NCBI GenBank assembly: GCA_000830275.1
Contig: CP010424.1
Location: 660,001 to 692,000 of the forward strand
DNA length: 32,000 nucleotides
Direction: 5' to 3'
Source of the DNA: an archaeon GW2011_AR10
Lineage (GTDB): Archaea; Iainarchaeota; Iainarchaeia; Iainarchaeales; GW2011-AR10
Position 1 is the first letter of the stretch. Each line of letters opens with the position of its first letter. This document shows, piece after piece, positions 4,526 to 26,600 of the stretch. Under the pieces are notes generated by a model. It did no database searches and had not been told where the DNA came from. It was given only the letters and a program-made list of their open reading frames with translations. The position numbers and the translations under genes were made by a program.

Positions 4526-4533
4526 TATATAAT
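4526..4533 (+). promoter_or_regulatory. TATA-box-like element for giant gene 1
   Basis: TATATAAT lies 39 nt upstream of the ATG at 4565. This fits an archaeal TATA at about -26 with a short leader. Confidence 0.4.
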
Positions 4534-4564: not shown

Positions 4565-7500
4565 ATGGGGATTTCCGAGACATTGAGCGGATTTTACGCC
4601 AAACTGGAGGACAAGTTCTATGGCATTGCGGACTTCTTTGACAGCAAAGGCATTCCGGTTAACAGCGCGATTGACTGGGTTGAGGACAAGGGCATTCCTG
4701 CTTTTCCTCTGACAATTGCGGCAATTGTTGTTGTTGTAGCGCTGCTTTACGGTTTCGTGTTTGCTGCAACACAGCAAGTAACTGTTGTTTTTGACCTGAA
4801 GGACAACAATGGAAACGCGTTAAGCCAGGTTAGGGTTAGCGCGGTTAATTCGGCAGGCAACAATGTTCCCTTAGGCAAAACTTCCTTTAAGGACGGGGAA
4901 GACGTAACACTTGCTGGAGTGCCTGTTGGCGGCACAATAAAGTTTTCCTCTCAAAAGGAAGGTTACATTGATGGAAAGTTTTCACTGCAGGTTTCAGGCA
5001 CTGAAAACCTTGCATTGCTGCGCATGAAAAAGGATGTGCAGACAATCGTGGGGCAAATAAGCCTTGTTGACACTGAAACAGGGGACCCTGTTGGAGAGGC
5101 ACAAGTTATTGCAACCTTAAGCGACAAATCAACTGTTGAATGCAATGCCGGGGAGAGCATTGGGGCTTATGAGTGCGTTGGAGTGCTCGAGGGTGACAGC
5201 GCAAAAGTTGATGTTAGGACAAGCAACTTTGAGGACAGCTCCTTCACTGTTTCTTTCTTCGAGGGAAGCGTCAGCGAGTTTGAACTGCAGCCAAAGGCTT
5301 CCGCTGCAGAAGGAAAAAGCAGCCTAATTATCAGGGTTGTGGATTCTGCAACAGAGCAGAGAGTGCAGGGCGCTACAATCAGAATATTTGACGCTGATGA
5401 TGAGGGCTTAATCAGTGAGGTAACTGACGAGGATGGGGAGTACATTGAAAGGGTTGACAAGGGGTTATCCTTAAGAGTGGTTGTTTCAAGGGACGGTTAC
5501 ATAAAGTATGATTCCGGCGCTGAAGGAATCGAGAGGACAATGCGGGATGACGAGGAGCTGTGGCTTGTCAGCATGGTGGAAGGCGGGGCAACTGTTACTG
5601 TTAGGGTAAGGGATGCTGGCGGAGCGCCACTAACAGGGGTTGTTGTTTCATTGTTCAACAGCGAGGCGGAACTGCTGGATGAAGAGAAAACATTGTTTGC
5701 CGGGGAAGTTGATTTTTCTGACTTGAATGCGGAAGCAACTTATTTTGTTACGGCTTTCCTTGACAGGTATGTTCCTGCAAGAGAAATCGTGAGGCCGCTG
5801 CAAAGCAAGGAACTTGACATAGAGCTGGAGCGATTAACGCAGTCAAATTCCTCCAATCTCAGGGTTTTTGTTGTTGATGAACGTAACAGTGCGGTAAACA
5901 ATGCGTTCCTTAACTTCTTTGAATTAGAGGACGGGAAGAAAACCCCTTCAGGAATACCGCAGCAGAAAAGTGATGTAACTGGAAAAGCAACTGTGCCTGT
6001 GTCAGTAAACATTTCAATGCTTGTTGAAGCGGTTAAGGGAGCGCAGCGCGGCGAAGCCGAGGTTGAAATCAAGCAGCAGGGCCTCAATGAGGCGCTTGTA
6101 ACTGTTCGCAAGGAGCTTGGCCTAGTGACCTTTGCTCTGCTGGATGAAGACAAGGAACCAGTTCAGGGAGGGCATTTAACAATTAAAAGCGGTGCAGGGG
6201 AAGAGCTGTTCAGGGCAACTCTTTCAGGGCAGAATGAAGTAACAGTTGATGTCGGGGAAAACGATTACGTGAAGATTGACTTCCTCGGCACTGACGGCAA
6301 AACACACGCGGAAGAAATTTATGTTAAGGAACAATCAAGGGTTGAAGTAATAATTGGCGGAAAGGGTTCTGCTAGTCTTTCCCCCACGCTGGAGTTTTTG
6401 GGGGTTTTCAGTGCAAGCGGTGCAGAGGTTGAGGGAATAAAGCGCGGGCAAGATTATTTCCTAAAGTTTCAGGTTGTTTTTCCTGAGGGCAAAGGAAATT
6501 ATGGCATGCACGTGAGGGTTGGGGATGACTCGGTTAAGTTTGCTGACTCGCAGGATGTCGGCATAATTGGTTTGAGTGCAACTGGTGCACAGGCTTTTTA
6601 TGGAAGAACTTTCTCTCCTTTCCCGGAACCGGGCTTTGAGGGGGTTGACATGCAGAACGAGGGAAACCCGGGAGGATACAACAAGTTTGTTGAGCTTTCC
6701 TTCACTGAAGGTGGAACAAAAATCGTCAAAGTGAGGGTTAAGGCAAAGGAAACAGCAACTGATTCAAGCTTTGATGTTAAGTTCAGGGCATGGAGTGAAG
6801 CAGGCAGAAGCTTTTATCGCGCACCAGTTGATTCAGTGCTTGAAACAGCAGCGTTTTCAAGCGAAAAAGGAACCTTGTACGCTGAAACATTGAAGGAAAG
6901 CGTGAGGATTTTCCAGACTGATTCGAGCTGCGAAGACGACTTGTGTGCTGGCTTCAAGTTCATCAGGAGCAATGACTCTGAGTTCGCGCCTGAAGACTTC
7001 AAGGCAGTGGTTGGAGAGGTTTACGCGCTTGAAGTGGAGCTTAACCCGAGCAAGGAAATTGACGCAACAATCAGGGCGGTCACTTCGCGAAGCAACCCGA
7101 AAATTTTCTGGCAAGGATATGGAATTGACAACTTCATTGACTTTCCTGACAACAACAAGCAGGAAACCTCCATTGAAGTGAAAGGAATTACTGCAATGCC
7201 GGGGCAGGCAGTCAAGACAAGGCTTTTCTTTAAGACGGTTGAGCTGGAAACCGCTTCAATCACGCTGCAGGTTGTAACAGCAGATGATGTTTTGAACGAG
7301 TCCTTCTTTTTCGATATTTTCCTTGAAAGGGACATGGAGTTCTCAATCCAGCCTGATGAGGTAACTTTGGGAAAGGACTTCAGCATCCTGTTAAAGGAGG
7401 ATACTGGAAAAGGGATTGAGAACGCAACGATTAAGCTGAAGGACAAGGACGGAAAGCACATTGAAACAATTATCGGGGATGGTTCCCTTGGAAAAGGGCT

Positions 7501-10500
7501 TGATGGAAAATACGATGTAAAAAACTCTTTTGATCCTGGAGTGATAAAATACGAAATCGCTGCTGAGGGATTCAAGCCTGTTGAGGGAGAACTTCAGGTG
7601 CTTAAAACCGGGGTGCTGAGGCTGCCGGAGGAAGTGCAGGTAAGCATTCCTGCTGGGCAGGAACAGGCAAGCGTTTCAGTAAACCTCGAAAATATTTCAG
7701 AGGAGTTAGTGCAGGACATACAGTTTGAGGTGAAGAGGCGCGGCAATTTCCCTGTTGGAATGGAGCTGAAGGCAGGCGGGGTTTCATCCATTCAGGCTAA
7801 CTCAACTTACAGGGTGCCGTTTACTGCAGCTTACCATGGAATTGCCGAAAGAGAGCACGGCGAGGTTGATGTTATTGCAAGGGGCAGGGTGCTTGGCAAG
7901 TACTCTGTCAGCGCTGAAACAAGAGTGAAAATTGACTTTAACCCCGAGGTTGACCCGGCAGACATTGAGTTCAGCAAGTCAAAGTTAGTGGCTTACCTTG
8001 CAAGCGGCTACGACAACAGGCAGTTCTATGACAACAGCTATAATCAGCGTTACCCTTCAGGCTATGACAGTTCCCTGTACGGCACTGGTGGCAGCTCTCC
8101 GTATGGCACTTCCCAGTACGGCACTGGTGGCACTTCCCAGTACGGCACTGATTACTCCGGCGCAGGCTACTATGACAGCACTTCATATCCTTACAGTTAC
8201 TCCAACAACGTTTACGCGCAAAGGTACTATCCTTCTTATTTGACTGGCTATGGTTCAACTGATTACTCCAACTATAATGACACTCTCCCATACCGTTACC
8301 TTAATTACTCAAGCGCGCAGCAGGTTGAGTTCACTATCAGGAACAACTCTGACCTTGACTTGGTGCTGGTGCCGGATGTTGTAGCAGAGGACAAAATTGA
8401 TGCTGAGGGAATACAGGTTGATGTGCCGCAGGTTACGCTGAAAAAAAAGGGCACAGCTGTCGGCGGGAGAAGAGAGGACGAGAAAGCAGTGAAGGTTTCC
8501 ATAACAAACAAGCTGCTTAGGAATTATCCAAACAAGCAGTCATTCAAGTTTGACCTTGTGTTCAAATCAGATGCAGTCACTAAGTCCATTCCGCTGGAGA
8601 TTTTCATTTGGAGCCCAAAGTTTGCGCTGGAAATGCAGCGCAATGTTGAGCTGTGGCTTTCACAGGAAACTCCAACGTCGAGGGCAATTGCTCAGGTTCC
8701 ATTGTTTGTGAGGAACGTTGGTTTGGCGCCTGTTGAAAACATTGTGTTCAGGGCTTCGAGCGCGAGCCTTCGCGGCAATGTCAATGTCAGAGTAATTCCT
8801 GCTGTGCCTGTTCCATTCCTTGACAAGGGGCAGGCAATAACTCCGCCGCCAGCGCTTGTGGCTGAAGCAATTAGAACAGAGAAGACAACCCTGCTGGATG
8901 TGAAGCAGATTGACGTGTTTGGAACCATTGACGGAAGGCAGTACGAGTTCGGGCCAATTTTTGTGACAACCCACATTTCTAGGCCGGAGTGCTTGGTTGT
9001 TGTGCCTAACTCGCTTGAATTCCTAAGCGAAAAGGAAACAGGGGCAATAACAAAGGAATTGAAGGTTAAAAACACTTGCGCTGAAGAGGTAAGGGTTAGG
9101 CTCATTGAGCCAAGAGAGTTTGGCTCAAACAGTCTTGACTTGGCGTTTCCTGATGAAGTTGTTCCGCCGGGAAGTGATAGGCCAATTCAAATAATTTTAA
9201 CCAAGAACGAGGCGTGGAATGCGCAAACACAGGTTTTTTTGCGCGGCTTCCTTGTGAGAAGCGGCAGGTTCACTTCCTCTAACCCAATAAACGTTAACCT
9301 CAACATAGGCAAGCAGGGAGTGCAGGACAAAGTAGCTGTTGAAGAAATTTCTGTGCCGGTGTGTGGTGAGGAAGGAAAGGCAGCTGAAGAAAAGCTCGTT
9401 GCGTTTCCGAAGATTGCAACAGGCAATGACTGCAGCAACGCTTACTGTGATGCAAAACAGCTTTCAGAGTTCTTGGCTGAAAAAATCAGAAGCAGAATTG
9501 ATGAAACAAAGAGGCAGGTAACCAACTACAAATCTGACTTGCTGAATGTGCCTACTTGCGAAACGCATTCATCAGGCTACTGTTCTTTTGCTGACTTGGG
9601 GCTTTCAGGGGAGAGCTTCAGCGTTTACTTCCAGAACGACATTCTTTCACCGCAGCTACTGAAGGAAGCCCTAAGCGGGAAAGGCGCGGACCTTGCTTCT
9701 TACAGAACAGACTATGCTTCAGGCTCTGATCCGGGCAGGTTTTTGGGGCAGATTGGAAAACAGGTTTTAATCAACGGAAGGATTGAGGGGTGCGGGCGCT
9801 ATAGAATGTCTGTTAACGGAGCAGTGAAAGTGCAGGGCTCGCAGCTGCAGCCTGACCTAATGGTGATACTAATTGATGTGAACCCGGAGGGAGAAGCACT
9901 GGACAATGCAGAGGGAGCAGCAGGGGGAGCAATGACAGGAAAAGAAGTAACGGAGCAGTGCCTGCCGAAGATACAAAACATTGCGAACTTTTTGCCGCTG
10001 GATGAAGGGTTCACTCCAGCCAACAGAAAGGACACTTTGCTTGGACTGGTTGATGTCGGCGGTGAAACACCTGAGGAAAAGCAAAAGCTTGAGGGTTTGG
10101 GAAAAGAGGTTGCAACTGGAATGTTTGGGAACGAGGCAAGGTTTGTGCAGAACGCAACCACTTCCAACAGATTGAACCTGCAGATTGGCGAAACAACTGG
10201 TTACTTGGTTAAGGTTGACATTGAGAAAACAGGGGAGGGGGCAAAGAAGACAGTGAAAGCATTCATTCAGGATGCTGGAACTAATGCAGAAAAGCAGGGC
10301 AAGGTTGCGAAGGAGGCAGCACAAGCAATAATCGGCTTGAGGAACAACGCGATTGACGGATGCATTTCAGCAAACGATGATTATGCTTTGCTGAAGTCAG
10401 CTGCAGAAGTTGGGGAACTTGAGATAATGGCGTGCAAGGACAGCAAGTTAAGGATTTCAGTTGGAGAGAGCTGCTGTGATATAAGCGTGCTTGGCGACTT

Positions 10501-13069
10501 GCAGCAGGAAGTAGAAGCCGGGGCAAGCATTGACAAGGTAACCGGAATAAACCCGCCGCAGGTAAAGAAAGGCAATGCAGCGGTAACTGAAACAAAGCTT
10601 GATGCAAAAGACGAGAAAACAAACAAGTACAAATCCGAATTGCAGCTTTGCGTTACAGGATTAACTGATTTGCATAATGCTAATGGAAAGAAGGTGAAGC
10701 TTGACGCGCAGTACAAGGTTACGAAAGCAAAGGCTGCAGCAAAAGAGGTTGAATTGCAAGTATGCGGCCTGCACCCAAGCACTCTGCTTGACGAAGTGCA
10801 AAAGCAGCCTGCCGGCACTTATTACTTTAATCCCTCGTGGAAGGGCACCCCTGAAACAATCCAGTTGAAGGAACTCATTGAAGGAGAGGTTGCTGAAGCA
10901 AACCTTGCTGAAGCAGAGAAATCCGTTGCAAGCAACAAACCAGGCGGGCAGACAAAAATTGAGGACGCGAAGAAAACCCAGAGGCTGCGGGGGCTTGGAA
11001 TATATGTTGGAACATGCAGTGCGGTTGCTGCTTTGGCAGGATGGTGGACTGGATTCGGGATATTTTTGAACCCCTTAATTGACTGCATTATTCCTGCTGC
11101 TTGGTCAGGAGCAGACGACATCGGGTTAGGCGGAGTGAAGGAATGGATTTCAGATATTTCAGGAAAGGTGTTTGGTTTCCTTGGCGGAATCACTGACAGC
11201 CTTTTCGGAAAGTTTGATGATGTTACTGAAGCATTGACAGGGCCAACAGACAACATTGAAAACTTTGACGAGTTAAAGAACAGTGCTTTCACGACCGTAA
11301 GCACTTACTCGATTTACCGTGGTATCACAAACCCAAGCGATATCGCAACTGCATCCAATGTTAGGTCAGCTGCAAAAACAGTTTCAGAAAACCTTGCAGA
11401 CCAGATAATGAAAGACAATTTCCCGCATTATCCACTCATTAGGAGCGCGAGGAGCACTGCGCTTTGGAAAAACCTTTCAGACAAGTATTACAACGAAATT
11501 GTTAAGGGGGCTGAATCATCTTACGGAAAATCAACGCTTGATAATGCGGTGAGAAGTGCAACTGGAGCATCACATGCAGCTGTTGCAGCCGACAGTAAAG
11601 TGGTTGAAGAGTTTGTTAAGCTTAAGGGAAACCTGAAGCCTGAAGCACAAAACCTTTTGAAGGGAAATAAGGCAACTGTGCTGAATGAAGCGTTTGATTT
11701 GCAGAAATACACAGGAGCCGCTGAAGGCTCAGGAACAGTTAAGAAGTGGGATATTGGAGTTGATAGAACCACCACTCCTCCTAAATATTCTGAAAAAAGC
11801 TTTAAGAGCACCGCAGCAGGAATTGCTGACCAGCTGACTAATGACACGTGGCCGCAAATCAGGAGTGACATGGCTGAAAAGCTTGGAGCAGAGTTTGTAG
11901 GAGAAAATGAAAAAGAATTGAGGTCACTTTACAGGAGAGGCGTTGGAGCAGCAGTGAGAAACCAGCTCTCAACCCCAGTTGACGCTGGCACAGGAAGGCT
12001 TCTGTCTTTTTCCACTGAGTTCACGCCAGCAAACGCAAGAAGCTCCGTTACCGCTGGAGTTGAAAACATTAACAAGAATTTGGCCGGCAAGGCGCTTGAA
12101 TTCGTGGAAAAGAAGGCCGGCCCGAAAGTGATGCAGGAGCTTGCACAAAAAGCAGATGAAGCAATTACAAGCACTAAAGGCACTTACAGTTTGAAATGGA
12201 CTAATTTCAAGTCATATGCGAAAGGTTTCCTCAAAAATTTCGGCAAAGGAATTGCTGGAGGACTGATAGCGAATGCTGCCGGCTTGGCCGCTTACAAGGC
12301 TTACATGAACAGCGCTGGAAAAGCGGTTGAAGCTGATGAAACTTTCCAAGCGATGCAAGGAAATGCAAGTGATGATGACGGTGATGGCTTAATTGATGAA
12401 GAGGTTGCTGACGGCATTGACAATGATGGAGACGGAAAAGTGGATGAGGATGTAATAGAAATCAAGTCAGACATTACGCTGAAAAAGTACAAGCCGTACA
12501 AGGTAACAATCAGGGAGGAGTTCGGCAGGAAAACTTATACAATTGATGAAGCCGGTGAAGGCGCGGAAATTCCTGCTGACGCAAAGTTCATTGAAAAGTG
12601 CGATGCAACCCTGCAGGAAGATTTCGAGGTTGTTGGGAGCCTGCTGCCACAAGCAAACGAATTCAGTGGACAGGCCCCACAGGTTGCCAGCTACTACAAG
12701 CATTACTCTCCAATTACAAGGCATTTCTCTGATGCGTTTAATGTGCCGGAAGCGCTGCTTGTAACTGTTGCTTCATGGAAGACAGGCATGGGAACTCAAG
12801 GAAGCGTTGAGTGGATTACGAGCTGCAATTACGGCAGCGAGGAAACAAAGTCAGTTGAAAAGAGCTTTGAGTGCGCTGCAAGAGAACTAAGCACTGCACT
12901 GAATTCTTGCAGCGGGGAAGAAAACAGCAAGGAAAAGGTAACTTGCGCTTTGCAGAAATATGATTCCGCAGGGAACAAGAGGCCAAATGAAAAAGCAGCA
13001 AACTTTGATGAACTGTTTGAACAATTCGAGCTGTGGAACAAGAGGAAATTCACAATTGAGGCAAGCTGA
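4565..13069 (+). CDS. giant membrane-anchored surface protein, paralog 1 (2834 aa from ATG 4565; ORF track start 4541)
   Basis: Uninterrupted 8.5 kb ORF. Parts in order: N-terminal conserved motif (aa 1-47), TM helix (nt 4706-4768), tandem CarboxypepD_reg-like repeats (about nt 4770-6360), GMHVRVG (6503-6523), Tyr/Gly/Ser-rich segment (8006-8312), YCDAKQLS (9443-9466), core end YYFNPSW (about 10819), then a unique ~740 aa C-terminal extension. Start 4565 was chosen because MGISETLSGFYAKLEDKFY aligns with the N-termini of the paralogs. Confidence 0.9.
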   Translation: MGISETLSGFYAKLEDKFYGIADFFDSKGIPVNSAIDWVEDKGIPAFPLTIAAIVVVVALLYGFVFAATQQVTVVFDLKDNNGNALSQVRVSAVNSAGNNVPLGKTSFKDGEDVTLAGVPVGGTIKFSSQKEGYIDGKFSLQVSGTENLALLRMKKDVQTIVGQISLVDTETGDPVGEAQVIATLSDKSTVECNAGESIGAYECVGVLEGDSAKVDVRTSNFEDSSFTVSFFEGSVSEFELQPKASAAEGKSSLIIRVVDSATEQRVQGATIRIFDADDEGLISEVTDEDGEYIERVDKGLSLRVVVSRDGYIKYDSGAEGIERTMRDDEELWLVSMVEGGATVTVRVRDAGGAPLTGVVVSLFNSEAELLDEEKTLFAGEVDFSDLNAEATYFVTAFLDRYVPAREIVRPLQSKELDIELERLTQSNSSNLRVFVVDERNSAVNNAFLNFFELEDGKKTPSGIPQQKSDVTGKATVPVSVNISMLVEAVKGAQRGEAEVEIKQQGLNEALVTVRKELGLVTFALLDEDKEPVQGGHLTIKSGAGEELFRATLSGQNEVTVDVGENDYVKIDFLGTDGKTHAEEIYVKEQSRVEVIIGGKGSASLSPTLEFLGVFSASGAEVEGIKRGQDYFLKFQVVFPEGKGNYGMHVRVGDDSVKFADSQDVGIIGLSATGAQAFYGRTFSPFPEPGFEGVDMQNEGNPGGYNKFVELSFTEGGTKIVKVRVKAKETATDSSFDVKFRAWSEAGRSFYRAPVDSVLETAAFSSEKGTLYAETLKESVRIFQTDSSCEDDLCAGFKFIRSNDSEFAPEDFKAVVGEVYALEVELNPSKEIDATIRAVTSRSNPKIFWQGYGIDNFIDFPDNNKQETSIEVKGITAMPGQAVKTRLFFKTVELETASITLQVVTADDVLNESFFFDIFLERDMEFSIQPDEVTLGKDFSILLKEDTGKGIENATIKLKDKDGKHIETIIGDGSLGKGLDGKYDVKNSFDPGVIKYEIAAEGFKPVEGELQVLKTGVLRLPEEVQVSIPAGQEQASVSVNLENISEELVQDIQFEVKRRGNFPVGMELKAGGVSSIQANSTYRVPFTAAYHGIAEREHGEVDVIARGRVLGKYSVSAETRVKIDFNPEVDPADIEFSKSKLVAYLASGYDNRQFYDNSYNQRYPSGYDSSLYGTGGSSPYGTSQYGTGGTSQYGTDYSGAGYYDSTSYPYSYSNNVYAQRYYPSYLTGYGSTDYSNYNDTLPYRYLNYSSAQQVEFTIRNNSDLDLVLVPDVVAEDKIDAEGIQVDVPQVTLKKKGTAVGGRREDEKAVKVSITNKLLRNYPNKQSFKFDLVFKSDAVTKSIPLEIFIWSPKFALEMQRNVELWLSQETPTSRAIAQVPLFVRNVGLAPVENIVFRASSASLRGNVNVRVIPAVPVPFLDKGQAITPPPALVAEAIRTEKTTLLDVKQIDVFGTIDGRQYEFGPIFVTTHISRPECLVVVPNSLEFLSEKETGAITKELKVKNTCAEEVRVRLIEPREFGSNSLDLAFPDEVVPPGSDRPIQIILTKNEAWNAQTQVFLRGFLVRSGRFTSSNPINVNLNIGKQGVQDKVAVEEISVPVCGEEGKAAEEKLVAFPKIATGNDCSNAYCDAKQLSEFLAEKIRSRIDETKRQVTNYKSDLLNVPTCETHSSGYCSFADLGLSGESFSVYFQNDILSPQLLKEALSGKGADLASYRTDYASGSDPGRFLGQIGKQVLINGRIEGCGRYRMSVNGAVKVQGSQLQPDLMVILIDVNPEGEALDNAEGAAGGAMTGKEVTEQCLPKIQNIANFLPLDEGFTPANRKDTLLGLVDVGGETPEEKQKLEGLGKEVATGMFGNEARFVQNATTSNRLNLQIGETTGYLVKVDIEKTGEGAKKTVKAFIQDAGTNAEKQGKVAKEAAQAIIGLRNNAIDGCISANDDYALLKSAAEVGELEIMACKDSKLRISVGESCCDISVLGDLQQEVEAGASIDKVTGINPPQVKKGNAAVTETKLDAKDEKTNKYKSELQLCVTGLTDLHNANGKKVKLDAQYKVTKAKAAAKEVELQVCGLHPSTLLDEVQKQPAGTYYFNPSWKGTPETIQLKELIEGEVAEANLAEAEKSVASNKPGGQTKIEDAKKTQRLRGLGIYVGTCSAVAALAGWWTGFGIFLNPLIDCIIPAAWSGADDIGLGGVKEWISDISGKVFGFLGGITDSLFGKFDDVTEALTGPTDNIENFDELKNSAFTTVSTYSIYRGITNPSDIATASNVRSAAKTVSENLADQIMKDNFPHYPLIRSARSTALWKNLSDKYYNEIVKGAESSYGKSTLDNAVRSATGASHAAVAADSKVVEEFVKLKGNLKPEAQNLLKGNKATVLNEAFDLQKYTGAAEGSGTVKKWDIGVDRTTTPPKYSEKSFKSTAAGIADQLTNDTWPQIRSDMAEKLGAEFVGENEKELRSLYRRGVGAAVRNQLSTPVDAGTGRLLSFSTEFTPANARSSVTAGVENINKNLAGKALEFVEKKAGPKVMQELAQKADEAITSTKGTYSLKWTNFKSYAKGFLKNFGKGIAGGLIANAAGLAAYKAYMNSAGKAVEADETFQAMQGNASDDDGDGLIDEEVADGIDNDGDGKVDEDVIEIKSDITLKKYKPYKVTIREEFGRKTYTIDEAGEGAEIPADAKFIEKCDATLQEDFEVVGSLLPQANEFSGQAPQVASYYKHYSPITRHFSDAFNVPEALLVTVASWKTGMGTQGSVEWITSCNYGSEETKSVEKSFECAARELSTALNSCSGEENSKEKVTCALQKYDSAGNKRPNEKAANFDELFEQFELWNKRKFTIEAS
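8105..8152 (+). repeat. in-frame 24-nt tandem duplication inside the Tyr/Gly/Ser-rich segment of giant 1
   Basis: GGCACTTCCCAGTACGGCACTGGT (8105-8128) versus GGCACTTCCCAGTACGGCACTGAT (8129-8152), 23/24 identical. They encode GTSQYGTG and GTSQYGTD. A related TACGGCACTGGTGGCA is at 8078-8093. Confidence 0.9.
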
Positions 13070-13082
13070 ATAGAGAGTTAAA

Positions 13083-13115: not shown

Positions 13116-14588
13116 ATGACTGGAATAAAGGGGTTCACGCTTTTCACTGCACTTGTTGCATTCATACTGATTGTTTTATCGGTGCTGCTGGTTCAGACAA
13201 TGATTCGCACCGAGAGGAATACAACTGACATCATTTCAGACATTCAGGAGGAACAGGAAATGCAGGCAATAGCTGATTTGGCGAGAGCAGAGGCACTGCA
13301 AACATTCAATTACGGCATCAGGTTTTCGATTGAGGACTGGCTCACAAAAGACGGGGATGGAGACGGCATTCCTGATAATGCTTACCTTTTGACGCCAAGC
13401 GAGTTGGCTGGAACTGATGCAGAGTCATGGGAGAACACAAAGAAAAAGTTCGCTGAATCCAATTTTGGTGTTGGAGGCGAAGGAACCCAGTTTGCCAACA
13501 GGGCAGCAAACCATCTTTCAACGCTGCTTGCAAGCACGCCTGATGTAAGGGGCTTCCAAGTAAATCTTGACAACAACAGCCAGGCGGTGATTGTTAGTGT
13601 GCTGGAACCATTGTTTGAGGACAGCAGTGCAAGGCAGGACTTTTTTGAAGTGATTCGGTGTGATGGCACTTGGGATGGTTGCCCGATAGGAACTTTTTAT
13701 GTTAACCTTGACATTGCAAGACTGACTGATGAGCAGTACGAGAAGCTGCCGCAGATTGTCGTGAAAAAAATCACAACAAAAGGAGAGGTGGAGAGGACTT
13801 TGAGGGAGCCGATTCTTCCAAGGGGAAATTTGCAGATTTATGTGCCGATAAGAATCTTCAAGGCAATTGCTGGGGCAAGAGATGTTGCAAGGACAGGCAG
13901 CGGGTTTTACTCTGGAGCAATTGATGCAACTTTGTTGGAGGTAAAGTTGGGGGTTTGTGGAGAGAACACTTGCGTGCCGGAATACCATTCTGCTTCCGGC
14001 CCTGACATTGAAGGTTTTGCCTGCGTCGGCGACACTTACGCTGACCATCCAAAAATTTCAAGCATTCCAGTTTTGATTGACGGAACATCTTTCAACTATG
14101 ATCCAAACAATGAGGAGGAAATGAGGAGCAGGCTGATTAACGAAGTTGGCAGGCCAAGGCTCCTCAACTTCTTTGCAAATGAGCTGACGCAAAACCTGCC
14201 TAATGACTTGAGTGTCCCGGCGGTTGACTTTCGGCTTGTAACAATTCCTGCGGGAAGCGGCTATGACACAATCCAGAGAACTTCTGTTATTGTTGTAACT
14301 CCTAAGACAAGGCAGGTTGATTTCATTGGTGCGCCATCTGGAGAAGCTGTTTGCGCGAGAATTGACAGGGTTGGCGGCTTCCTTGTGTTTGAGGACACCA
14401 AGCCGGATTACATGGTGAGCGAGTTGCCAAAATATGGTTCTCTTATCCCTACTAACAGGTATGCTGTGAGGCTTTCAACTGACTCTTTTTCTGGAGAAGT
14501 TCCTGCTGTTAAAACCTGTGAAACCATTGCAACCCCAACTGGAATAGACCTGGCAGATTTTACTTACAGATGCGAGTTCAGGGGCTGA
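13116..14588 (+). CDS. large Cys-rich protein with class III (type IV pilin-like) signal peptide
   Basis: 490 aa. N-terminus MTGIKG|FTLFTALVAFILIVLSVLLV: short basic n-region, KG, then a ~20 aa hydrophobic helix with no Glu at +5 (archaeal style). TSP3-like acidic loop DGDGDGIPD at nt 13350-13379. About 11 Cys, which suggests an extracellular disulfide-bonded domain. Confidence 0.8.
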   Translation: MTGIKGFTLFTALVAFILIVLSVLLVQTMIRTERNTTDIISDIQEEQEMQAIADLARAEALQTFNYGIRFSIEDWLTKDGDGDGIPDNAYLLTPSELAGTDAESWENTKKKFAESNFGVGGEGTQFANRAANHLSTLLASTPDVRGFQVNLDNNSQAVIVSVLEPLFEDSSARQDFFEVIRCDGTWDGCPIGTFYVNLDIARLTDEQYEKLPQIVVKKITTKGEVERTLREPILPRGNLQIYVPIRIFKAIAGARDVARTGSGFYSGAIDATLLEVKLGVCGENTCVPEYHSASGPDIEGFACVGDTYADHPKISSIPVLIDGTSFNYDPNNEEEMRSRLINEVGRPRLLNFFANELTQNLPNDLSVPAVDFRLVTIPAGSGYDTIQRTSVIVVTPKTRQVDFIGAPSGEAVCARIDRVGGFLVFEDTKPDYMVSELPKYGSLIPTNRYAVRLSTDSFSGEVPAVKTCETIATPTGIDLADFTYRCEFRG

Positions 14589-14892: not shown

Positions 14893-17800
14893 ATGCCTGA
14901 GGGGAAAAAGGGGCTTTACGCTTCACTTGAGGGAAAGTATTACGATTTGCTTGACTGGCTTGACACGAAGGGAATCCCTGTTTACAGTGTAGTTGACTGG
15001 ATTGAGGACAAGAATATTCCTTCCTTTCCTGTTGCAGTGCTTTTCTCCTTTCTTGTGCTGATTTTGGTTGGCTGGCTTGTTTTGGGCTTGGTTGCGCCGG
15101 GCAAGGCAACGCTTTCTGTTTCGGTTTTTGATGAAAGCCTTTCTCCAGTTAGTAATGTTGAAGTGAGCGCTTCGACTGCTTCTGGGGGAACAATTGGCCC
15201 GGAGCTTACTGATGCAAGCGGTGTTGCAAGCATAACTGTGCCAATGAATGAGGAAATTCTTGTTGAAGCAAAAAAGGAGCCTGATTTCAGGACAAAAACT
15301 GAAACTTTCACTGCAATTAAGCAGGAGGAAAGCCTTGAGTTGGAGTTGCAGCGCACGGTTTCAACTTTGAGGAAAACAATTGAAATTTTGAGGCCTGGAA
15401 CAAACGAGCTTGTGGACGAGCTTGTGGAGCTTGAGCTTCGATGCAGTGAAAAGCCAGAGTTCAGCGAGCGCGTAACAACCACTACAGGCATAATTACTGT
15501 TGAAGTACAGAGCGATTGCGGAACACTTCACGTTACTCCTGCCAATGGGTTCACTGCTTCCGGCACAACAAGTTTTGATGTGAGGGTTGAGGGAACAATT
15601 GAACTGTTTTTGAGGGAAGAGGAAACAGGGAAAGGCACAATAATTGTTTCAGTTACTGACAGCTCTGGAACCCCACTGCAAGGAATTGATGTTTCGGTTG
15701 TAGTGCGGAGTGATGAATCAGAAATTGGCTCGGTTGTTGAAACAAAGCAGACTCTTGCTTCAGGCACTGTTACTTTCCTTGAGGTTCCGGAAGGAACATA
15801 CTCTGTAACGGCTTTTGACAGAACAGGAACGTTCAGCGAATTTGATTCATCAGAAATTGGCTTGGTGCAGGAAGTTGCGGATGGGGCAACCAAAACTTTT
15901 TCAATTGCATTGGAGAAAACAGTAGTGGGCTCAATAAGGGTTTTAGTGAAGGACGCTGTTTCGCTTAAGGCAATTGAGAACGCAACTGTTTCAGTGAGCA
16001 AAGAATCAGTGAATCTCCCTCAAAAGAAAACCGATGCGGAGGGAAGAGCCGAGTTTGGTGTAGGGGAACAGGTAAAGTACACTGTTGTTGTGGACAAGGA
16101 AGGCTACCTCATTGAAGAACTTGAACTGGAGCCTGCCAATGAGTTCAGGGAAGTTCTTTTAAGGGAGGCAACAGCTGAGAACAGCCAGAGCCTTACAGTA
16201 ATAGTGAGAGACGAGGTAGGCGACCCGATTGAAAATGTAAGAATAACTTTGAGGAACGCGGAAACTGATGCGCAGGTTGGAAGGGAGCTTGTTACTGGCA
16301 TTGCAGGAATTGCGTTGTTTGAAAGAGTTGAGGCGGGAACATATTACGTGTTTGCCTTGAAGCCTGGCTTCGGGGAAAAAACAAGCCAGACATTCACTTT
16401 GAACAGGAGGCAGGAAAACAGGGTGGAGCTAACCATTTCAATCGGTTCTGGAGCAGTTGAATTGATGGTGTTTGATGAAGCAAAGCAGCCAATGGCTGGG
16501 ACAAGCGTTAAACTGCTTGACTTTTACTCGAAAGAAGTTTTAAGCGAGGGCATCACAGGCTCTGATGGAATTGCTTCTCTTGCTGCGAGAGCAGACAAAA
16601 CAGTTTATGCGGTGGTAACCTTGAGCGGTTACCTGCCGTACATTACTAGAACTGTTAGGATGGGAAAGGATGTAACGCAGCAACTTGAGGCAGGCATGAG
16701 GAAGGAAATAAGTGCTCTTTCACTTGAACTGGTGAGCCTGCAGCTCGGCGAAGAAACTGTGAGAGACGTTGAGGTGCCAAGCCTTGAGCCGGGGCAAAGG
16801 TATAAGGCAAAGTTTTTGCTGCTGGTGCCTAAGGGCTCTGCTTTGGAGGAGGCTGGAGTGCATTTGAGGGTTGGCGCATCAGAGGAAGGCAAAACAAATG
16901 TGCTGGAGAAAGATGACCTGTATATTCTGGGTGTGAGTTCTGCTTTCAGTGAAATTCTGCGCGGCACTTCTTTCACTCCGCCTATTGGCTATGGCGCTGA
17001 CGCGCAACATTTTACTTCAGCTGAAGCGAAGTGGGTTAATGTTTTCTTTTCACAGCCAGCAAACGGCGTGATTGAAGTTGAAGCAGAAATTCAGGTTAGG
17101 GAAAATGCAAGGCGCGGCTCAGCGCTTGACTTGTGGTATAGGGCTTGGGGGAAGACAGGAAGTTACCTTAGGTTTCCAAGCGATGCAGCTCTTGGAAGCT
17201 CTGAGAACAGTGCATCAAAGCAGGCACTGTATGCTCAGGCCAAGAACAAGAAGTTTTCTGTTGGCCCAACCAACCTTTGCTTGAACGAGTTCTGCTCAAC
17301 TGTTTCAATTGAGGACTTGAGGGAAGAGCTTGAAACAAGCGTTGTGGACGAATATGTTGCGGAAATAGGCAACAATTACAGGTTAAAGTTTTCCATAAAC
17401 AGTGTTTCATCAGAGCTATTCGAGCAAGCAGAGCTACAGGTGGTTGACTCAACAGGCAGCCTTGCATTTGGCAATTACGACATTTCAACTGTTGCCGGGG
17501 AGCGGAGAAGCGGAACTGCAACAGGCTCAGAGTTAAGGGTTGGAATAGGGAGCCTGGCAAAAGATGACTTCTTTAATGGAACGCTTGAGTTCAGTTCAAG
17601 AAAGGAGGGAACAGCCTTAGTGCAATTAAGCGTCATTTCATCCAACCAGCGGGTTTTCGAGAAAGAGGTTAGGATCCTTGTTTTGCCGGCAGAAGAGATG
17701 AGCGTTGACATTTTGCCGAAAATAATTGTGCCATTCATTAACAACAACATTTTGGTGCAGGCTTCAACTGAGGCAGAGGATGGGTTGCTGTTGCCTGTTC

Positions 17801-20800
17801 CAAATGCATCAGTTTCATTGAAGAAAGACGGCGAGGTTGTTGCCTCTGGTTTCACTGATTCAGCCGGAATTTTTCCTTACACGCTGTTGAACCCGAACGC
17901 AGGCATAACTGTTGGGGTTAAGGTTGAGAAGCCTGGCTTCAGGCCGGTTGAAAAAGAAATAATCGTTACTGAGGACATTTTGGTTGCAACTCCTGCAACA
18001 CTGAGGGAAACCCTTAAGGTTGGCTTGGCTCCAAGCAAAGAGCTTGCATTCGGTTTAAGCAATTTAACCCAAGTGCCCCTCACTATTTCCAGTGTTGAGG
18101 AAAGCGCTGACTTCACTAACTTGGTGAAATTTTCATTTGATGAAACCCTTGAGGGAAGAGTAATTGGGGTTAGGGAGGACAGCAACTTAACTGTTAGGGT
18201 GAGCCTTGCTCCTGCTGGAACTATTGTTGATGAGCCTACTGCTGTGAATGGAGGGGTAAGCGTTTACGTAACGAACCCTGCATTTAACCGCACTTGGCGC
18301 AGCGTTATTCCTGCAGAGATAAGGATTGGCTTTGGTGAGGAAATAGATGATGCAGACTGCTTCAGCATTTTTCCCAGCGACTGGAGGATTTTCACTTCAA
18401 CTGAGGCCAAATCGTTGAACGTTGATGTGAAGAACTCATGCAAGATTGGCGGAATTCCTGTTAATCTCAGGAACCTGCAGGCAAGGCTCGTAACCGGCAA
18501 CCAAAACCAGGCTGGAGAATTCAGGGTTAAGAGCAACTTGGAGGGAAGCAACTCAGTAAATTTAACCGGCAGTTTCCAAACCATTTCATTGGTTGTGCCG
18601 GAAAACTCGGAGTCAACTTTGACCTTTGATTTTAACCCTGCAAACGTCAAGAGCGCCAGCTCAGAGCTAAAGGTGGAGGTGAGGGCAATTAACCTTACGG
18701 TTAACGGGGCAGAAGAAGTGAAGCGGGCAATAAATGTGAAGGTTAGTGTGAATGACTTAGTGCAGTGCTTGGATATCCCGCAAAGGGAAGGCCTAAAGCT
18801 TTTGAGCTGCCCGTTCAATGTAGGTTATGGAAATTACCCCAACAATTTCGGCGGGGCATACGGTTATGGTGGGTATCCTTCTGGTTACTCTTACGGCCAA
18901 GGTTATGGTGGAACAAGCTATTATGGGAATCAGGCTTCAGGCTACAACCTTTATGGTGGAACAGGCTATTATGGGAACCAGGCTTCAGGCAACAACCTTT
19001 ATGACCCTTCCAATACAGGCCTTGGTTATGGTAGCGGCTACAACAACTACAATCCTTACGGTTCCGGTTATGGACTTGGCGCTGGTTATGGTGGAACAAC
19101 AAGCTCTTACGGTTACAGTTCCTATGACCCTTACCAAACTCAATCCGGCTACGGAAGCGGATTGCCTCCATACATTGGCACGCTTTCACAGCTTGGCTCA
19201 ACTTACCCTAACCCATCTTATTACTCCCCATCCTATGGCGGCGACTACTATGATAGAAGCGCTAACAACAGGTTTGGGTGCGGCCCTGGATTAGGCCAGG
19301 GAAAAGCAGAAATAGTGCTCAACAATTCCTGCACTGACTCGGTTGAAGTGCAGGCAAGGGATGCTGATGGTTTGATAATTAATGAGTCAACTGTTAAGAT
19401 TGAGAAAGGAAAGCAGGGAAAAATCAGTGTGCAGCCAGCCTACTTTGTTGGAAGGTATCCTGTAGAGATTTCAGCAAGGCTTGAAGGAAGCGAAGAGTCA
19501 TTCACTCCGATTGATTCCGTAAACGTAATCGTGGAGAACCCTTTAACTCTTTCATACAGGGACTGCATCAGTGTTTCTCCTTCAAGGAAGCTTTCATTCA
19601 ACAACTTTTTCGGAAGGCCTGTAACATTGAAAGTTATAAACAGCTGCGTGAATGAAGGAGTGCGGCTGCTTTTCAGCAACGACACGATTTTCTTTTCAAG
19701 TGGCGCATTGAGGCAGCCAACCGACGTTAGGAGCGGATTCCACGAAATGATTGAGAACTGGGCAATACTTGATGAAAAGTTTGAGTCAGCACCAGACGGC
19801 AAAACCACTCAAATACTTGAGTTTGAAATAGTGAAAGCGCTGAAGCAGTACTGCAATCAAGCACCGCCTTTCCCAAAAGAGGGAAGCATTTTCCAGCAGG
19901 TGGGAAACTTGCGCTACTTTGCTTCTTCAGCGTACTACTCTGTTCTGGGAAGAGCAAGTTTGACTGTTAAGTTTTTCACTCCTTTTGGCAGTGAGAGCAG
20001 GATTGCTTTCCCGATGGAAATAGAGGACTTCTGGGAGGGGCTGCCTTACGGTGAAAGGCTCATAAGCTACGGTGACCCGAATTACACTCCAGACCAATGC
20101 GTGAAGCCTGATGCATTGAATTTCAACAACACTTACAATGGGTGCATTCCTATTGGAGAGCTTGACAGGCTTGCAACGCAGCCTTTTTCAACAAAGAATA
20201 ATGGAGGCTTAATGGTTGTTGCAGCGCCACAGCCAGTCAGCCAGACTTGCCAGAGCTTCCAGGCACTAGTGCAGGCCGGCGCGCCAGAGAAAGGCGGCTG
20301 CGGAACTGTTGACACAATTTCAGGGCTTTCAAGCAACAGGATTGAAAAGAACGGAATGGTGTTTTACTTTAATGCCCTCAATAACCGCGACATTGAAATG
20401 CGCGTTGACAAGTCAGCCTGGAACGGAAAAAAGGTTGAGGTTGAGGAAACATTGTTTGTTACAGTTAACAGGGTGGTGCCTTCAAGCAGCAAGCGGGTTG
20501 CTGTGCCGGTCAAGCTGTGCGTTGAAGGCGGAGCTAATATTGGGCAGGAAGAGCAGAGCATAATTGACAAACTTGATGACAAGTACGGCGAAAACAGGTG
20601 GAAGGAACTCGGCGAGTCCGACTTGAATAAGGCAATAAAGGAGGCCAAACCCAATGCAACCAATGAAGAAATCAAAAAAATAACGGATTTGGCTAATGAA
20701 ACCCCAACAACAGGAGAGGCTTTTGTGTGCGAGGCGGGAAAGAGTGGCAGCGCTGTTTACAAGGAGCTTGGCTTTGACAAGCTGTTGTTTGATTGGCGCT

Positions 20801-22977: not shown

Positions 22978-23448
22978 ATGAATGAGAACCAATTGATTTA
23001 TGTGCCGTTGAATTTTATCATGTTTCTTGTGGGCCTCGCGGTTGGCTTCTTTCTGGAATTGAACATCGCGCCTTTCACTTTTGGCATTCACCCCGCTGTT
23101 GACGCAGTTGTTTTAACTTTCGGGGTTTTCGTGCTCTCAATTGTTTTCTATGGTTACCTTAACCCTGTTATTTTCCTTTATATTGGCCTGCTTCACTCAG
23201 GCCTGGTTTCAGGGAACCCTATTGGAGTGGTAATGCTCTTGCTTCCATTGCTTGTTGCATCTTATGGGGGTGGAATGACTGCAGGCTATTTGGCGGTTGA
23301 CCTGCACGAGGAAGGCAACCTGTTCGAGCACAAAATCCAGATAGCGGCTTTTTTCTTTGGGGCGCTGTTTTTGGCGCTTGTAATAGGGCTGCTTTACGGT
23401 TTTCTCCCCAACCTGGAGGAACTTGACAGCCTGATTTTTTATGATTAA
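22978..23448 (+). CDS. small polytopic integral membrane protein (4-5 predicted TM helices), function unknown
   Basis: The ORF track starts at TTG 22963; the first ATG is at 22978 (MNENQLIYVPLNF...), giving 156 aa. There are successive ~20 aa hydrophobic stretches (FIMFLVGLAVGFFL, VVLTFGVFVLSIVFYGYL, VVMLLLPLLVASYGGGM, IAAFFFGALFLALVIGLLYGF). GAGG lies 9 nt upstream of ATG 22978. Confidence 0.7.
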   Translation: MNENQLIYVPLNFIMFLVGLAVGFFLELNIAPFTFGIHPAVDAVVLTFGVFVLSIVFYGYLNPVIFLYIGLLHSGLVSGNPIGVVMLLLPLLVASYGGGMTAGYLAVDLHEEGNLFEHKIQIAAFFFGALFLALVIGLLYGFLPNLEELDSLIFYD

Positions 23449-23628: not shown

Positions 23629-23656
23629 TTGGAAATTACCTGCGCACGGTGAATAA

Positions 23657-26600
23657 ATGGGTGTCCTAGATTCATTGAAAAACATTTATTTTGGCCTCGA
23701 GGAAAAGTACTATTCTCTGCTGGACAAAATCGATGAAAGGATCCCAATTTACAAGATAATCGACCCAATTGACAAGATTGTGCCGAGTTTTGCACTGGTT
23801 TTAATCATCGGTTTCTTGCTCCTTGTTTTGGCACTATGGTGGCTTGCAGGAATACTGCTGCCGCCGACAACCTCAACCCTGACAATTGTTGTGGTGGAAG
23901 AGGATAAAACTCCAATAGAAAATGCTGCCGTAACTTTTTCGGTTGGCGGTGAGGAAGAAAGCAGGGAGCGCACAAACGAAAACGGTGAAGCAAAGCTTGA
24001 GGGCATTGAAAAGGGAACAGAGGTGTTCGTTGAAGCCGAGAAAGAAGGCTATCAGACAAGGACAAGGAGCGTGTTCGTTTCAGAGGTTCCAAGCCAGGTT
24101 GAAGAAATCGTTTTGGAGCTGGAGGAAGCTGCATTTGAAACAAAAACAATCAGGCTTGTTGATTCTCTTGGGCAAGGCGTTCCGGCTGAGTTCACGCTTA
24201 CTTTCAGCTGCAGTGACCCTTTTGCAACTCCGCCTTCACCGGTAAACCTGCTTAGAAGCGATTTTGGGGTTGCAAGGGTTCAGGTGCCAAGCAACTGCGG
24301 AACACTGCGCGTTTCAGTAATTGATGATGCAGGCTATGAAAACATAACAAGCATTGAGGTCATTGGGAATGACTTCAGGATTGAGTTAAGTGAAGCAGTA
24401 AAGCCTGAAGGCACAATCGCGGTAAACCTGCTGGATGAAGACGGAAATCCAATTGAGGACTCAGTTGAAGTGCAGTTGTACCGCTACGATGACCTGGTTC
24501 AGAACCCGGAAATAGGGCCAATTGATTTTGGTTACAGTTCCGGCGGGCAAGCAACATTTGTTGCAACTGTGGGACAGTACGTGGTGAAGACGTTTGACTC
24601 TTCCGGAGTTTATGGGGATGAAACTTCCGCCAGGATAACGCTTTCAGCTGATGAAACCAAGACAGTTAACATCACTTTAACTGCGAATGTCATTGGGAGC
24701 ATTAAGATTCAGGTAATTGATTCTGCTTCAAGGCAGCCGGTTGACAATGCAAAGGTAACATTAAAGTATCAGAGCGATGAAAGGCAGGTGGCGCAGCTCA
24801 CAACTGACTCGGATGATGACGCAATAGTTGAGTTCTCCATTTCCAGGGACGTGGAATACAGGGTTTTGGTTGAAGCAGAAGCCTACCAGCTTGGAAAAAG
24901 GGAGAGCCTTGAAATAAGCAGTGCTGTTGTAGTGGTTGAGCTCAACAAGTGCACTCCAACAACTTGCGGAAAGCTTTTAGTGAAGGTGCTAGACCAAGAC
25001 GGGGAACCAGTGGAAAATGCTGCTGTTTCATTGTACAATGCTTCAACCAATTACCTGGCTGGCTACAGCAACAAGGTGTCTGATCTCAATGGAGTTGCAG
25101 AGTTTACTGGAGTCAGCTCCGGAAACTACTTTGCGTTTGCGTTCAAGGAAACAATTTCAGGGAGAAGCGACACAACATATTTCAGCAGTACAAGCAATGA
25201 CGATGAAGACGTTGACTTGACTGTTTCAATGGAGATTCCAAACGGGATTGTGAGGGCGCTTATTGTTGACAAGGAAGGAAGAGGAATTGCTTTTCCAATT
25301 GTTACTGTGTTTGATGCGCGCACAAACGAGGTCATTGGCTCAAGGCAGGGGGAAGCGGATGGCACCTTCGAGCTTGAAACAAAGGCTGACAAAAGGGTTT
25401 ACCTGCGCGTTAGGCAGAAGGACTCAAAGCCAAGGATGGCAGACTACTTCACTGTAGCGAGGCCTGTTGTGCCGTCAACCATTCAGGAGTTCACAATAGT
25501 AATGGAGCCGGAAATAATTGACAAGGACATCGAGGCAGAGTTTTTGGGTTTGTTCCAAGCAGGGGAAAGGGCAAAGACTCTTTCAAAAGGAGAACAGTAC
25601 ACGGCAAGATTCAGGTTGCGCGTGCCAGAGGAAAAGGATTACTCTGAAACAGGAATGCACATCAGGGTTGGAAAAGAACTCATAATGGAAAAAGACCCCA
25701 TTGTGTTGAAGGAAATAAACGCTCCAGCAGCATCAATCATCAAGGCAACAAAGTTTGACCCTGACTCAGGATTAAGCGAACAGCAATATGCTTTGACGAA
25801 TGATGACGCAAAATGGTCCAACATTGTTTGGAGCAATGAGCCGGCTGCAGGAATATATGAGGTTGAATCGGTTGTGGAAATAAAGGAAACCGCCTCAATT
25901 CGCGATGAGCTGGAAGTGCATTGGCGGGGCTGGGCTGAAAACGGAATCAGGGAAAGAAATCCTGAGGATGACTCTGTTTCAATTGAGCTTTACTCTAATA
26001 CCCACACGCAGGTGTTTGAGGTTGGCGTAACCACTTTGTGCAGTGAGGACTTCTGTTTCAGCGCAAGGATAAGGGACCAGGAAGCAGGCCTAACCGAATC
26101 TGTTTCTGATGCGTACACTGCAAGGATTGGGAACACTTACGAATTTAGGTTCATTATTACAAACAACAACCCTTCAAGGATTCACGACAACGCGGATCTT
26201 AGAATCAACAACGTTGACCAGGCAGTCAGGTTTTTGGAGTACAGCATGGTGAACGCGCAAACAGGAGAACTGCAAGGCGTAGTCAATGGTTCAGAATTTC
26301 CAAGGCTGAACGTTGGCAATTTGAGCCCAAACCAGGACATTGTTCTGACAACAGAGTTCGTAACATTGAAGCCAATCACAGGCATCATAAGCATCAGGCT
26401 TGTATCTGATGAGGCAATTGTTTTCGAGAAAAACCTTACAATCCAGATTTCTGCGCCGAAGGAAATGACTGTAACTGTTCTACCGCAGCGCTATGCTTCC
26501 GGCATAGAAACAGACATTAATGTGCTGGTCAAGGACAAGGAAACAAGGCTTGAGCTGGAGGAAGCTGTTGTAAGGCTCAAAGACAGAAGGGATAACACCA

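Follow-up and report, generated by a model that had tools for sequence, protein, structure and literature searches.

A conserved N-terminal module of giant DPANN proteins as a possible folded foot on an uncleaved signal-anchor

Why should four giant proteins that have otherwise diverged strongly open with one and the same short sequence? The question arises in a 32,000-nucleotide stretch (hereafter "the window"; positions 660,001 to 692,000 of contig CP010424.1, assembly GCA_000830275.1) of the closed 1.24 Mb genome of archaeon GW2011_AR10, a tiny groundwater member of the Diapherotrites/Iainarchaeota within DPANN. Four very large open reading frames (ORFs) lie there on the + strand, with a summed span of 30.6 kb or ~2.5% of the chromosome: G1 (4565..13069, 2834 aa, AJF60237.1), G2 (14893..22902, 2669 aa, AJF60239.1), G3 (23657..30991, 2444 aa, AJF60241.1), and G4, which starts at 31019, runs off the window at 32000, and measures 2249 aa in GW2011_AR10 (locus L087). 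The first three belong to the gene series QT03_C0001G0742-0746, i.e., G1, a pilin-like gene, G2, a 156-aa gene, and G3, whose products (AJF60237-AJF60241) are all deposited as hypothetical. In all four giants the first residues follow the consensus x5-LKxxYxxLEDKYYxLLDxxxxxIPVYKVIDPIDKxVPSF, after which comes one long hydrophobic helix. We propose, with confidence about midway between doubt and acceptance, that this motif forms the N-terminal foot of a family of DPANN giants, namely an uncleaved N-in/C-out (type II) anchor with a folded cytoplasmic hairpin that offers a docking face.

A preliminary description of the window had reported the shared opening, and translation of the four segments reproduces the peptides that it quoted exactly. 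Two of them are of one sub-type, A: the G1 module (4565-4768, + strand; motif residues 1-48 with the end IPAFP, then the start of the signal-anchor helix) and the G2 module with its anchor helix (14893-15096, +; ...KGIPVY..DWIEDKNIPSFP). The G3 module (23657-23860, +) and the G4 module with its anchor helix (31019-31207, +) are of a second sub-type, B. The description had also singled out this stretch as the best conserved part of the proteins. In an alignment of the complete giants G1, G2, and G3, the N-terminal 45 residues indeed reach a mean pairwise identity of 0.45, against 0.33 for the runner-up segment and 0.13 for the whole protein. Scored against an independent profile that was built from ten unrelated metagenomic fragments only and held no window sequences, the N-termini of G4, G3, G2, and G1 obtain 82, 80, 64, and 40 bits, respectively (E from 1.6e-18 to 2e-5 even for a database size of 1.8e9 sequences).

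The four copies share 53-68% DNA identity, with synonymous differences at saturation (proportion of synonymous differences, pS, 0.58-0.78) and a lower proportion of non-synonymous differences (pN, 0.20-0.42). With synonymous differences saturated and pN lower, the region is translated, and the similarity reflects purifying selection on the protein and not recent duplication or gene conversion. This bears directly on whether the stretch is a protein feature at all, since it might be left untranslated by use of a downstream start, or the resemblance might reflect chance or the DNA alone. We found no point in support of such a reading. Protein conservation extends over hundreds of clusters on top of the saturated synonymous change, relatives begin M-G-(L/I/V)-x-(D/E) at the first ATG, TATA-like boxes precede the ATGs, and the giants would have no hydrophobic targeting element if the stretch were removed. 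We give this reading practically no chance, and regard it as effectively refuted.

For G1, a TATA-like box at 4526..4533 (+ strand; recognized from sequence only) lies 32-39 nt upstream of the ATG at 4565, and an alternative upstream ATG at 4541 lies just 8 nt downstream of the same box. The G1 start is most likely 4565 and not 4541, because of the spacing of the box, because the public annotation uses 4565, and because relatives begin M-G-x-x-D/E. Further TATA-like boxes are found at 13080-13087 (pilin-like gene), 14838-14845 (G2), and 23619-23626 (G3). The distance from box to ATG is ~30-39 nt for G1, G3, and the pilin-like gene and ~50 nt for G2, and the gap between G3 and G4 is 27 nt. Together, this arrangement suggests that most genes of the cluster may have their own promoters with short leaders, and that G3 and G4 may be co-transcribed.

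We next consider how far the motif extends beyond these four genes. An exhaustive HMMER search of 1.84 billion cluster representatives (50% identity), made with a 50-position profile of the motif alone, recovered 932 clusters at E ≤ 1e-3, 470 of them at E ≤ 1e-10, i.e., a widely conserved element that is not confined to the four genes. An earlier word-indexed search had given just ten fragments, and the apparently tiny family that it implied was corrected by the exhaustive search. The motif was N-proximal in 150 of the 150 matches listed, mostly within the first 30 residues and at the latest at residue 160, the later positions being as expected from mis-called start codons. Across the loci that we fetched, its median start is residue 3 of the ORF, and no internal occurrence is significant; weak internal matches were judged to be noise. 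In 130 matches to a strict regular expression, a hydrophobic stretch follows the motif (mean Kyte-Doolittle value 1.9-3.4), except in one fragment with a truncated helix.

The carriers are themselves very large. Among the fetched loci, 71 of 75 complete carriers exceed 1100 aa (median 2410 aa), masked bases occur in two of the four that are shorter, and short database entries with the motif are contig-end fragments. The restriction to very large proteins that had been anticipated for the motif is therefore borne out, and it is not common among small cytoplasmic proteins. Matches are labeled "carboxypeptidase regulatory-like domain-containing protein" or "hypothetical protein" and come from Candidatus Diapherotrites, Iainarchaeum, Micrarchaeota, and unclassified archaeal metagenome-assembled genomes. 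Similarly, when one genome per GTDB species was scanned with one back-translated pattern, 212 of 247 matches could be confirmed, and Candidatus Iainarchaeum bins account for nearly all of them. Three carrier contigs lie in bins named Falkowbacteria (L049), Chloroflexi (L052), and Thaumarchaeota (L039). All three come from one study, L052 and L039 share Iainarchaeum-type neighbors, and we judge these bacterial and thaumarchaeal carriers to be probably mis-binned. Judged by sequence, the motif thus marks several hundred giants of a mainly Iainarchaeota/Diapherotrites DPANN family.

Nothing comparable was found among catalogued families. No meaningful match was obtained in Pfam (searched with the full giants up to E = 0.1 and with the four N-termini of 64-68 aa up to E = 10) or NCBIfam, nor among PDB sequences with the motif profile, for which the top hit was an enterocin at E = 0.07. 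The searchable literature, in a survey that was not exhaustive, yielded no account of the motif, its family, or the cluster. We conclude that the module is lineage-specific, previously undescribed, and not homologous to any catalogued example. Giant surface proteins in which a conserved N-terminal element is joined to a signal-anchor are already known as a general kind, but the present element differs from the catalogued ones in charge, fold, and probable fate.

What the module might do is constrained by which of its residues are kept. In an alignment of 78 diverse members (G3 numbering), Y11, E15, Y19, D23, P30, P43, and F45 are invariant, and K8, D16, K/R17, Y/W18, L22, Y32, D36, I38, D39, and S44 are nearly so. 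Two sub-types can be distinguished, A with two one-residue insertions (KGIPVY...D(W/A)IE..NIPSFP) and B with IPVYKVIDPIDKVVPSF, and they correlate with the position of the gene in the operon. For G3, an alignment-based AlphaFold2 run on the N-terminus (mean predicted local distance difference test score, pLDDT, 95.3) placed helix 1 at residues 3-28, helix 2 at 32-41, a turn or cap at P43-S44-F45, the membrane helix at 44-67, and a beta-sandwich from residue 72 onward. From this model the motif is probably a folded helical hairpin of ~42 residues. Helix 1 (26 residues) has a hydrophobic/aromatic arc with a hydrophobic moment of 0.36 and a Y-x3-E-x3-Y-x3-D stripe along one side, and helix 2 is short and strongly amphipathic (IPVYKVIDPIDK; hydrophobic moment ~0.7). 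A Foldseek search with this N-terminal model matched the beta-sandwich domain alone, because a helical hairpin holds too little signal. The module would seem to be more than an amphipathic membrane binder, since its conservation is too strict for that and the moment of helix 1 only moderate, and the strictness at polar residues points to specific contact with a protein and away from plain membrane binding.

The helix behind the motif has the properties of an anchor. The motif had been placed directly ahead of the only N-terminal hydrophobic helix, and in each giant one hydrophobic segment near the N-terminus does stand out: under the stricter hydropathy threshold G1, G2, and G3 show a single one (residues ~37-72), and under a looser threshold G3 shows a second, weaker segment at residues 1597-1616. 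Of 66 full-length relatives, 64 contain one membrane-like segment and no other. Behind the motif, the run of uncharged residues has a median length of 30 (5th-95th percentile, 23-38). The leader, with a median of 42 residues, carries ~6.8 positive charges and a mean net charge of -0.9. Its earlier characterization as net acidic is correct, but needs the qualification that the segment also contains ~6 conserved Lys/Arg. The number of lysines plus arginines averages 1.97 over the 15 residues that precede the helix, against 1.23 behind it, and net flank charge is ~-0.2 before the helix and ~-1.3 after it, i.e., the C-terminal flank is more negative. This distribution is consistent with an N-in orientation by the positive-inside rule. 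A single N-proximal segment of membrane-spanning length with the positive flank on its N-terminal side is what characterizes a type II signal-anchor. Residues 1-75 of the 78-sequence alignment contain neither an RR pair nor a conserved Cys, leaving no twin-arginine translocation (Tat) or lipoprotein signal. Behind the helix, the exported part has CarboxypepD_reg, Big_1, SpaA, and bMG3-type domains, as extracellular proteins typically do; PF13620, which describes the ectodomain and not the motif, scores 68, 115.8, 88.5, and 53.5 bits in G1 to G4 (cut-off, 32.3).

These same features bear on the possibility that the motif is instead an extended n-region of a cleavable Sec signal. Such a region would delay or guide export, and signal peptidase I would cut it off behind the hydrophobic segment, so that the giant would be released or anchored anew. 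The preliminary description had drawn this analogy with the ESPR (PF13018) and YSIRK-G/S (PF04650) extensions, and the likeness is genuine insofar as all are conserved, lineage-restricted N-terminal extensions before the hydrophobic region of very large surface proteins; in addition, a possible V-F-A|A site lies behind the G1 helix. ESPR and YSIRK are, however, bacterial, basic or aromatic, unstructured, and part of a cleaved Sec signal, whereas the module of the giants is archaeal, net acidic, predicted to be a helical hairpin, and followed by an anchor of ~30 uncharged residues. Neither model matched the giants, and the YSIRK-G/S motif is absent from the family alignment. The hydrophobic stretch of cleaved signals is roughly 7-15 residues long, and the median of 30 found here is far too long for such an h-region. 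No conserved small-x-small site follows the helix, and the giants, which have no other clear membrane anchor, would upon cleavage escape from a cell with no known outer retaining layer. Finally, classical Sec signals in the same window are quite unlike the motif: they read MNRKVFALAAFLFFAVLVLPSAFA and MKNKIFVAVAVVLLAVLVFAAEA, i.e., MNRK plus ~16 hydrophobic residues plus AFA, and MKNK plus hydrophobic residues plus AEA. Since these two upstream secreted proteins have textbook signals, GW2011_AR10 uses ordinary Sec signals where needed. The two proteins are encoded in tandem at 488-1933 (481 aa) and 1938-3443 (501 aa), with no Pfam match and no homologues in the fetched related loci. Given the unmatched models, the long anchor-like stretch (23-38 residues), the hairpin predicted at a pLDDT of 95, and the different Sec signals nearby, we abandon the ESPR/YSIRK analogy and rate a cleaved Sec signal as very improbable.

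A second kind of processing deserves more attention, although we still consider it improbable. The conserved region stops exactly where the hydrophobic helix begins, at an invariant P-S-F, and the motif could accordingly be an unusually long, structured class III-like leader cut at VPS|F, so that the giants would be pilin-like subunits or tip proteins in a type IV filament together with the pilin-like protein encoded between G1 and G2. As in class III signals, conservation stops on the cytoplasmic side of the helix, just at its edge, and a beta-sandwich comes next, which in the AlphaFold2 model gives the lollipop layout of archaeal pilins. The same operon also encodes a true class III-type protein with [KR][GA]|F[TN]LFTALV. 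Type IV pilus genes have in addition been reported in Diapherotrites genomes (PMC8561730). Against it, positions -2/-1 are Pro-Ser in 77 of 78 members (with P43 invariant), and Pro-Ala in G1, instead of [KRDE][GA]. The leader, at 42-44 residues, is acidic and predicted to be folded, whereas known class III leaders are short and basic. Strict conservation of a leader that is then discarded would also be odd, and subunits of 2200-2800 residues are hard to fit into filament packing.

An uncleaved signal-anchor with a folded cytoplasmic foot thus remains the reading that we favor. Its parts would be the ~42-residue hairpin, the invariant Pro-Ser-Phe cap, and an uncleaved hydrophobic helix of ~25 residues. 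The signal recognition particle (SRP) and Sec would recognize the long hydrophobic helix, while the hairpin, pre-folded and Lys-rich yet net acidic, would be unable to cross the membrane; it would stay in the cytoplasm and set the N-in/C-out orientation even though the n-region is not net basic. Folded N-terminal domains before a signal-anchor are known to enforce an N-cytoplasmic orientation. Once orientation is fixed, the rod of 2200-2800 residues, made of Ig-like domains and a distal domain, would be exported, with the retained hairpin acting as a stopper at its base. The invariant Tyr/acidic face would then be available for docking: the paralogous giants might associate laterally through it, or a single cytoplasmic or membrane factor common to all of them might bind there. 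We infer the cytoplasmic location, the absence of cleavage, and the docking from the features described above. Among the readings offered in the preliminary description, its alternative of a cytoplasmic docking peptide appears to fit best.

Several observations weigh against this proposal. A net-acidic N-tail of 42 residues is in principle translocatable, which could result in an N-out topology, and the invariant P-S-F, right where the helix begins on its cytoplasmic side, might just as well mark a site of processing. In the covariation analysis (mutual information with average product correction over 243 unique N-termini), the top pairs mirror the split between sub-types A and B and the alignment edges, and only L22-Y32 hints at a contact between helix 1 and helix 2. 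Lastly, no docking partner was identified.

Comparison with known systems helps to place the foot. A close parallel in layout is provided by the RsgI-type anti-sigma factors of clostridia, type II anchors with an N-domain of ~50 aa, one membrane helix, and a large extracellular part. With the layout proposed for the giants they have in common a short conserved N-terminal domain on the intracellular side, one helix that is not cleaved, and a large, variable part outside the cell. They differ in that there is no sequence relationship and in that the giants have an extracellular part of 2200-2800 residues and occur as four tandem paralogues; to our knowledge, moreover, archaea have no sigma factors. 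Among DPANN archaea, the SPEARE giants of Nanohaloarchaeota are similarly DPANN giants that take up several per cent of a ~1 Mb genome and have mostly extracellular adhesion-type domains and one membrane helix. Their intracellular portion is likewise the most conserved region, and they are mostly C-terminally anchored, with protease, laminin-G, toxin-like, and restriction-endonuclease domains (PMC6642349). By contrast, the putative intracellular part of the giants studied here is only ~42 residues, and Pfam scans of them returned no SPEARE-type serine protease, laminin-G/adhesion, or type III restriction-endonuclease domain. The likeness to NOMO and the CarboxypepD_reg families concerns the ectodomain: the first ~1000 extracellular residues of the giants are repeated transthyretin-like or Ig-like domains, with PF13620 above cut-off and a faint NOMO1-like match. 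These families are not known to have the N-terminal module, and NOMO is eukaryotic and C-terminally anchored.

If the motif does serve docking, the genes next to the giants are candidates for partners. Between G1 and G2 (13116..14588, + strand) lies the pilin-like gene, whose 490-aa product starts MTGIKG|FTLFTALVAFILIVL, a class III signal (MTGIKG|FTLFTALVAF) that contains the [KRDE][GA] feature as KG|FTLF. Most homologues with the N-terminus present keep [KR][GA]|F[TN]LFTALV(A/S)F. In NCBIfam, the protein gave weak ComGF/ComGE matches below cut-off, and the rest of it had no match among PDB sequences or in Pfam. Homologues occur in 20 other fetched loci, or 16 when repeat fetches of the same DNA are counted once, and the gene is a conserved neighbor upstream of a sub-type A giant. 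Between G2 and G3 (22978..23448, +) lies the gene for the 156-aa polytopic membrane protein (AJF60240.1), which has no Pfam family. Its family is found in 22 fetched loci (18 distinct), always upstream of a motif-bearing giant and in most cases directly so, at 4-265 bp in 14 of 16 pairs and ~850 bp in the other two. We examined the 156-aa protein (TM160) as a minimal prepilin-type aspartic peptidase and rejected it, as it has a single conserved Asp and no GxGD-like motif.

Overall, the genes follow a fixed order, [giant A] - pilin-like - giant A - 156-aa protein - giant B - giant B. Beyond the window, downstream of G4, come five small multi-pass membrane proteins of 125, 104, 90, 104, and ~130 aa (s125, s104a, s90, s104b, and s130, respectively), then an acidic coiled-coil protein of 187 aa on the opposite strand. 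Downstream of the last giant, as many as six distinct other loci keep s125 to s104b, four keep the coiled-coil protein, and only one keeps s130. The extended cluster (window 4565-32000 plus 17363-26127 of locus L087) measures roughly 35-45 kb and recurs in several Iainarchaeota genomes, the cluster order being found at L002, L005, L010, L011, L014, L025, L042, L058, L060, and L084. None of the neighboring small or membrane proteins of the cluster matched a known family.

The motif also occurs outside this cluster. In another class of carriers, of ~900-1700 aa and mostly 1240-1500 aa, the gene is followed by one for a conserved Sec-signal protein of ~580 aa, in most loci immediately or with overlapping stop and start (L023, L030, L035, L039, L052, L066, L072, L078, L079, and L085). 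Upstream of the 1240-1500-aa carriers lie housekeeping genes, a Hel308-like helicase or a beta-CASP RNase. This arrangement suggests that these carriers and the ~580-aa protein form two-component surface units distinct from the four-giant cluster. Since the genes around it differ among at least three settings, the motif is a module generic to the family and not tied in cis to the pilin-like or 156-aa genes. The expected co-occurrence with a pilin-like gene or a membrane protein therefore holds for the four-giant operon type, but not for the many carriers with other neighbors. Likewise, the 156-aa protein cannot be an obligatory partner encoded next door, since many carriers lack it nearby.

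These distributions also bear on a reading in which the motif is an address tag for an assembly or insertion platform encoded by the cluster, i.e., the 156-aa protein, the five small multi-pass proteins, and the pilin-like protein, which would recognize the motif and gather the giants into one envelope structure, much as sorting machinery works with its sorting signal. The conserved order of the pilin-like gene, giant A, the 156-aa protein, and two giants B speaks for such a platform, as do the retention of s125, s104a, s90, and s104b downstream of the last giant in six distinct other loci and the way in which the motif sub-type follows operon position; two of the small proteins furthermore end in basic tails that, from their sequences, could meet the acidic motif. 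Yet many carriers, including the 1240-1500-aa class, sit beside the 580-aa secreted protein, the helicase, or the beta-CASP RNase, so that the platform would have to act in trans. Moreover, the 156-aa family is present in just 18 distinct loci, and no candidate matches a known insertase, peptidase, or secretion component. On balance, we regard this platform as unlikely. A broader version, which we offer as a tentative and still rather doubtful possibility, is that the motif is the address tag of a hitherto unrecognized, phylum-specific surface-assembly system for all motif-bearing giants of an Iainarchaeota cell, working either through docking of the invariant Tyr/acidic face of the hairpin on the platform of the 156-aa and small multi-pass proteins or through a cut at VPS|F by a prepilin-type peptidase, which would turn the giant into a pilin-like subunit working with the 490-aa protein. 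If true, either route would be a new archaeal pair of sorting signal and machinery, and would define an envelope or host-contact apparatus of a DPANN lineage.

Beyond the foot, the ectodomains show several further features. In G1, the N-anchor is followed by CarboxypepD_reg/Ig-like repeats and a divergent C-terminal half, the last 589 aa of which had no match among PDB sequences. In G3, an Ig-like rod leads to a conserved distal C-terminal domain of ~400 aa (residues 2036-2444; window 29762-30988), which is also found at the C-termini of G2 and G4 and is kept in ~50 relatives, with the motifs SPFYYLPFDG.VG...GR.GYG, FSPS.ATPV, and FWWNP and conserved Cys residues. AlphaFold2 predicts it to be mostly beta (pLDDT 89; predicted template modeling score, pTM, 0.83), and Foldseek found no match to it in PDB or BFVD (best TM-score ~0.15); from this model, the domain may be a new fold. 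Low-complexity Gly/Tyr/Ser-rich linkers (YGTGGSSPYGTSQYGTGG..., GYGGYPSGYSYGQGYGG...) lie mid-protein in G1 (~7900-8300) and G2 (~18750-19200), where the DNA has short tandem repeats at 8071-8150 and 18903-19003, respectively, and the counterpart in G3 is a Pro/Gly/Trp-rich segment. Gly-rich hydrophobic segments are found deep in the ectodomains of G1 (~10980-11130 and ~12230-12300), G3 (~28430-28520 and ~28900-28970), and G4 (L087 ~21800-21930, e.g., GIGAIVGGAAGIGIGYLALAAFCLPCALVGAVIGALLPGLFG), with none in G2. They could be re-entrant or membrane-inserting elements, acting on the cell's own membrane or on that of a partner. Just upstream of G1, at 3525-3985 and 4030-4362, the - strand encodes a putative toxin/antitoxin pair and a pterin-4a-carbinolamine dehydratase (PF01329, E = 7e-30). 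The toxin is an 82-aa ParE/RelE-like protein with weak Pfam matches, and the overlapping upstream ORF of 70 aa is a putative antitoxin.

DPANN archaea are tiny and mostly uncultured, and little is known of how they build their envelopes and make contact with other cells. A signature of 50 positions now picks out, from metagenomes, the giant surface proteins of a whole lineage that are currently labeled "hypothetical" or "carboxypeptidase regulatory-like". "Hypothetical" giants hence become recognizable as a nearly phylum-wide multigene family with a conserved cluster, and their shared 45-residue handle lends itself to pull-downs, antibodies, topology assays, and multimer predictions. Archaeal sorting signals such as PGF-CTERM, which works with archaeosortase, are C-terminal. 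If the handle described here is a sorting or docking signal, it would be an archaeal N-terminal counterpart to them.

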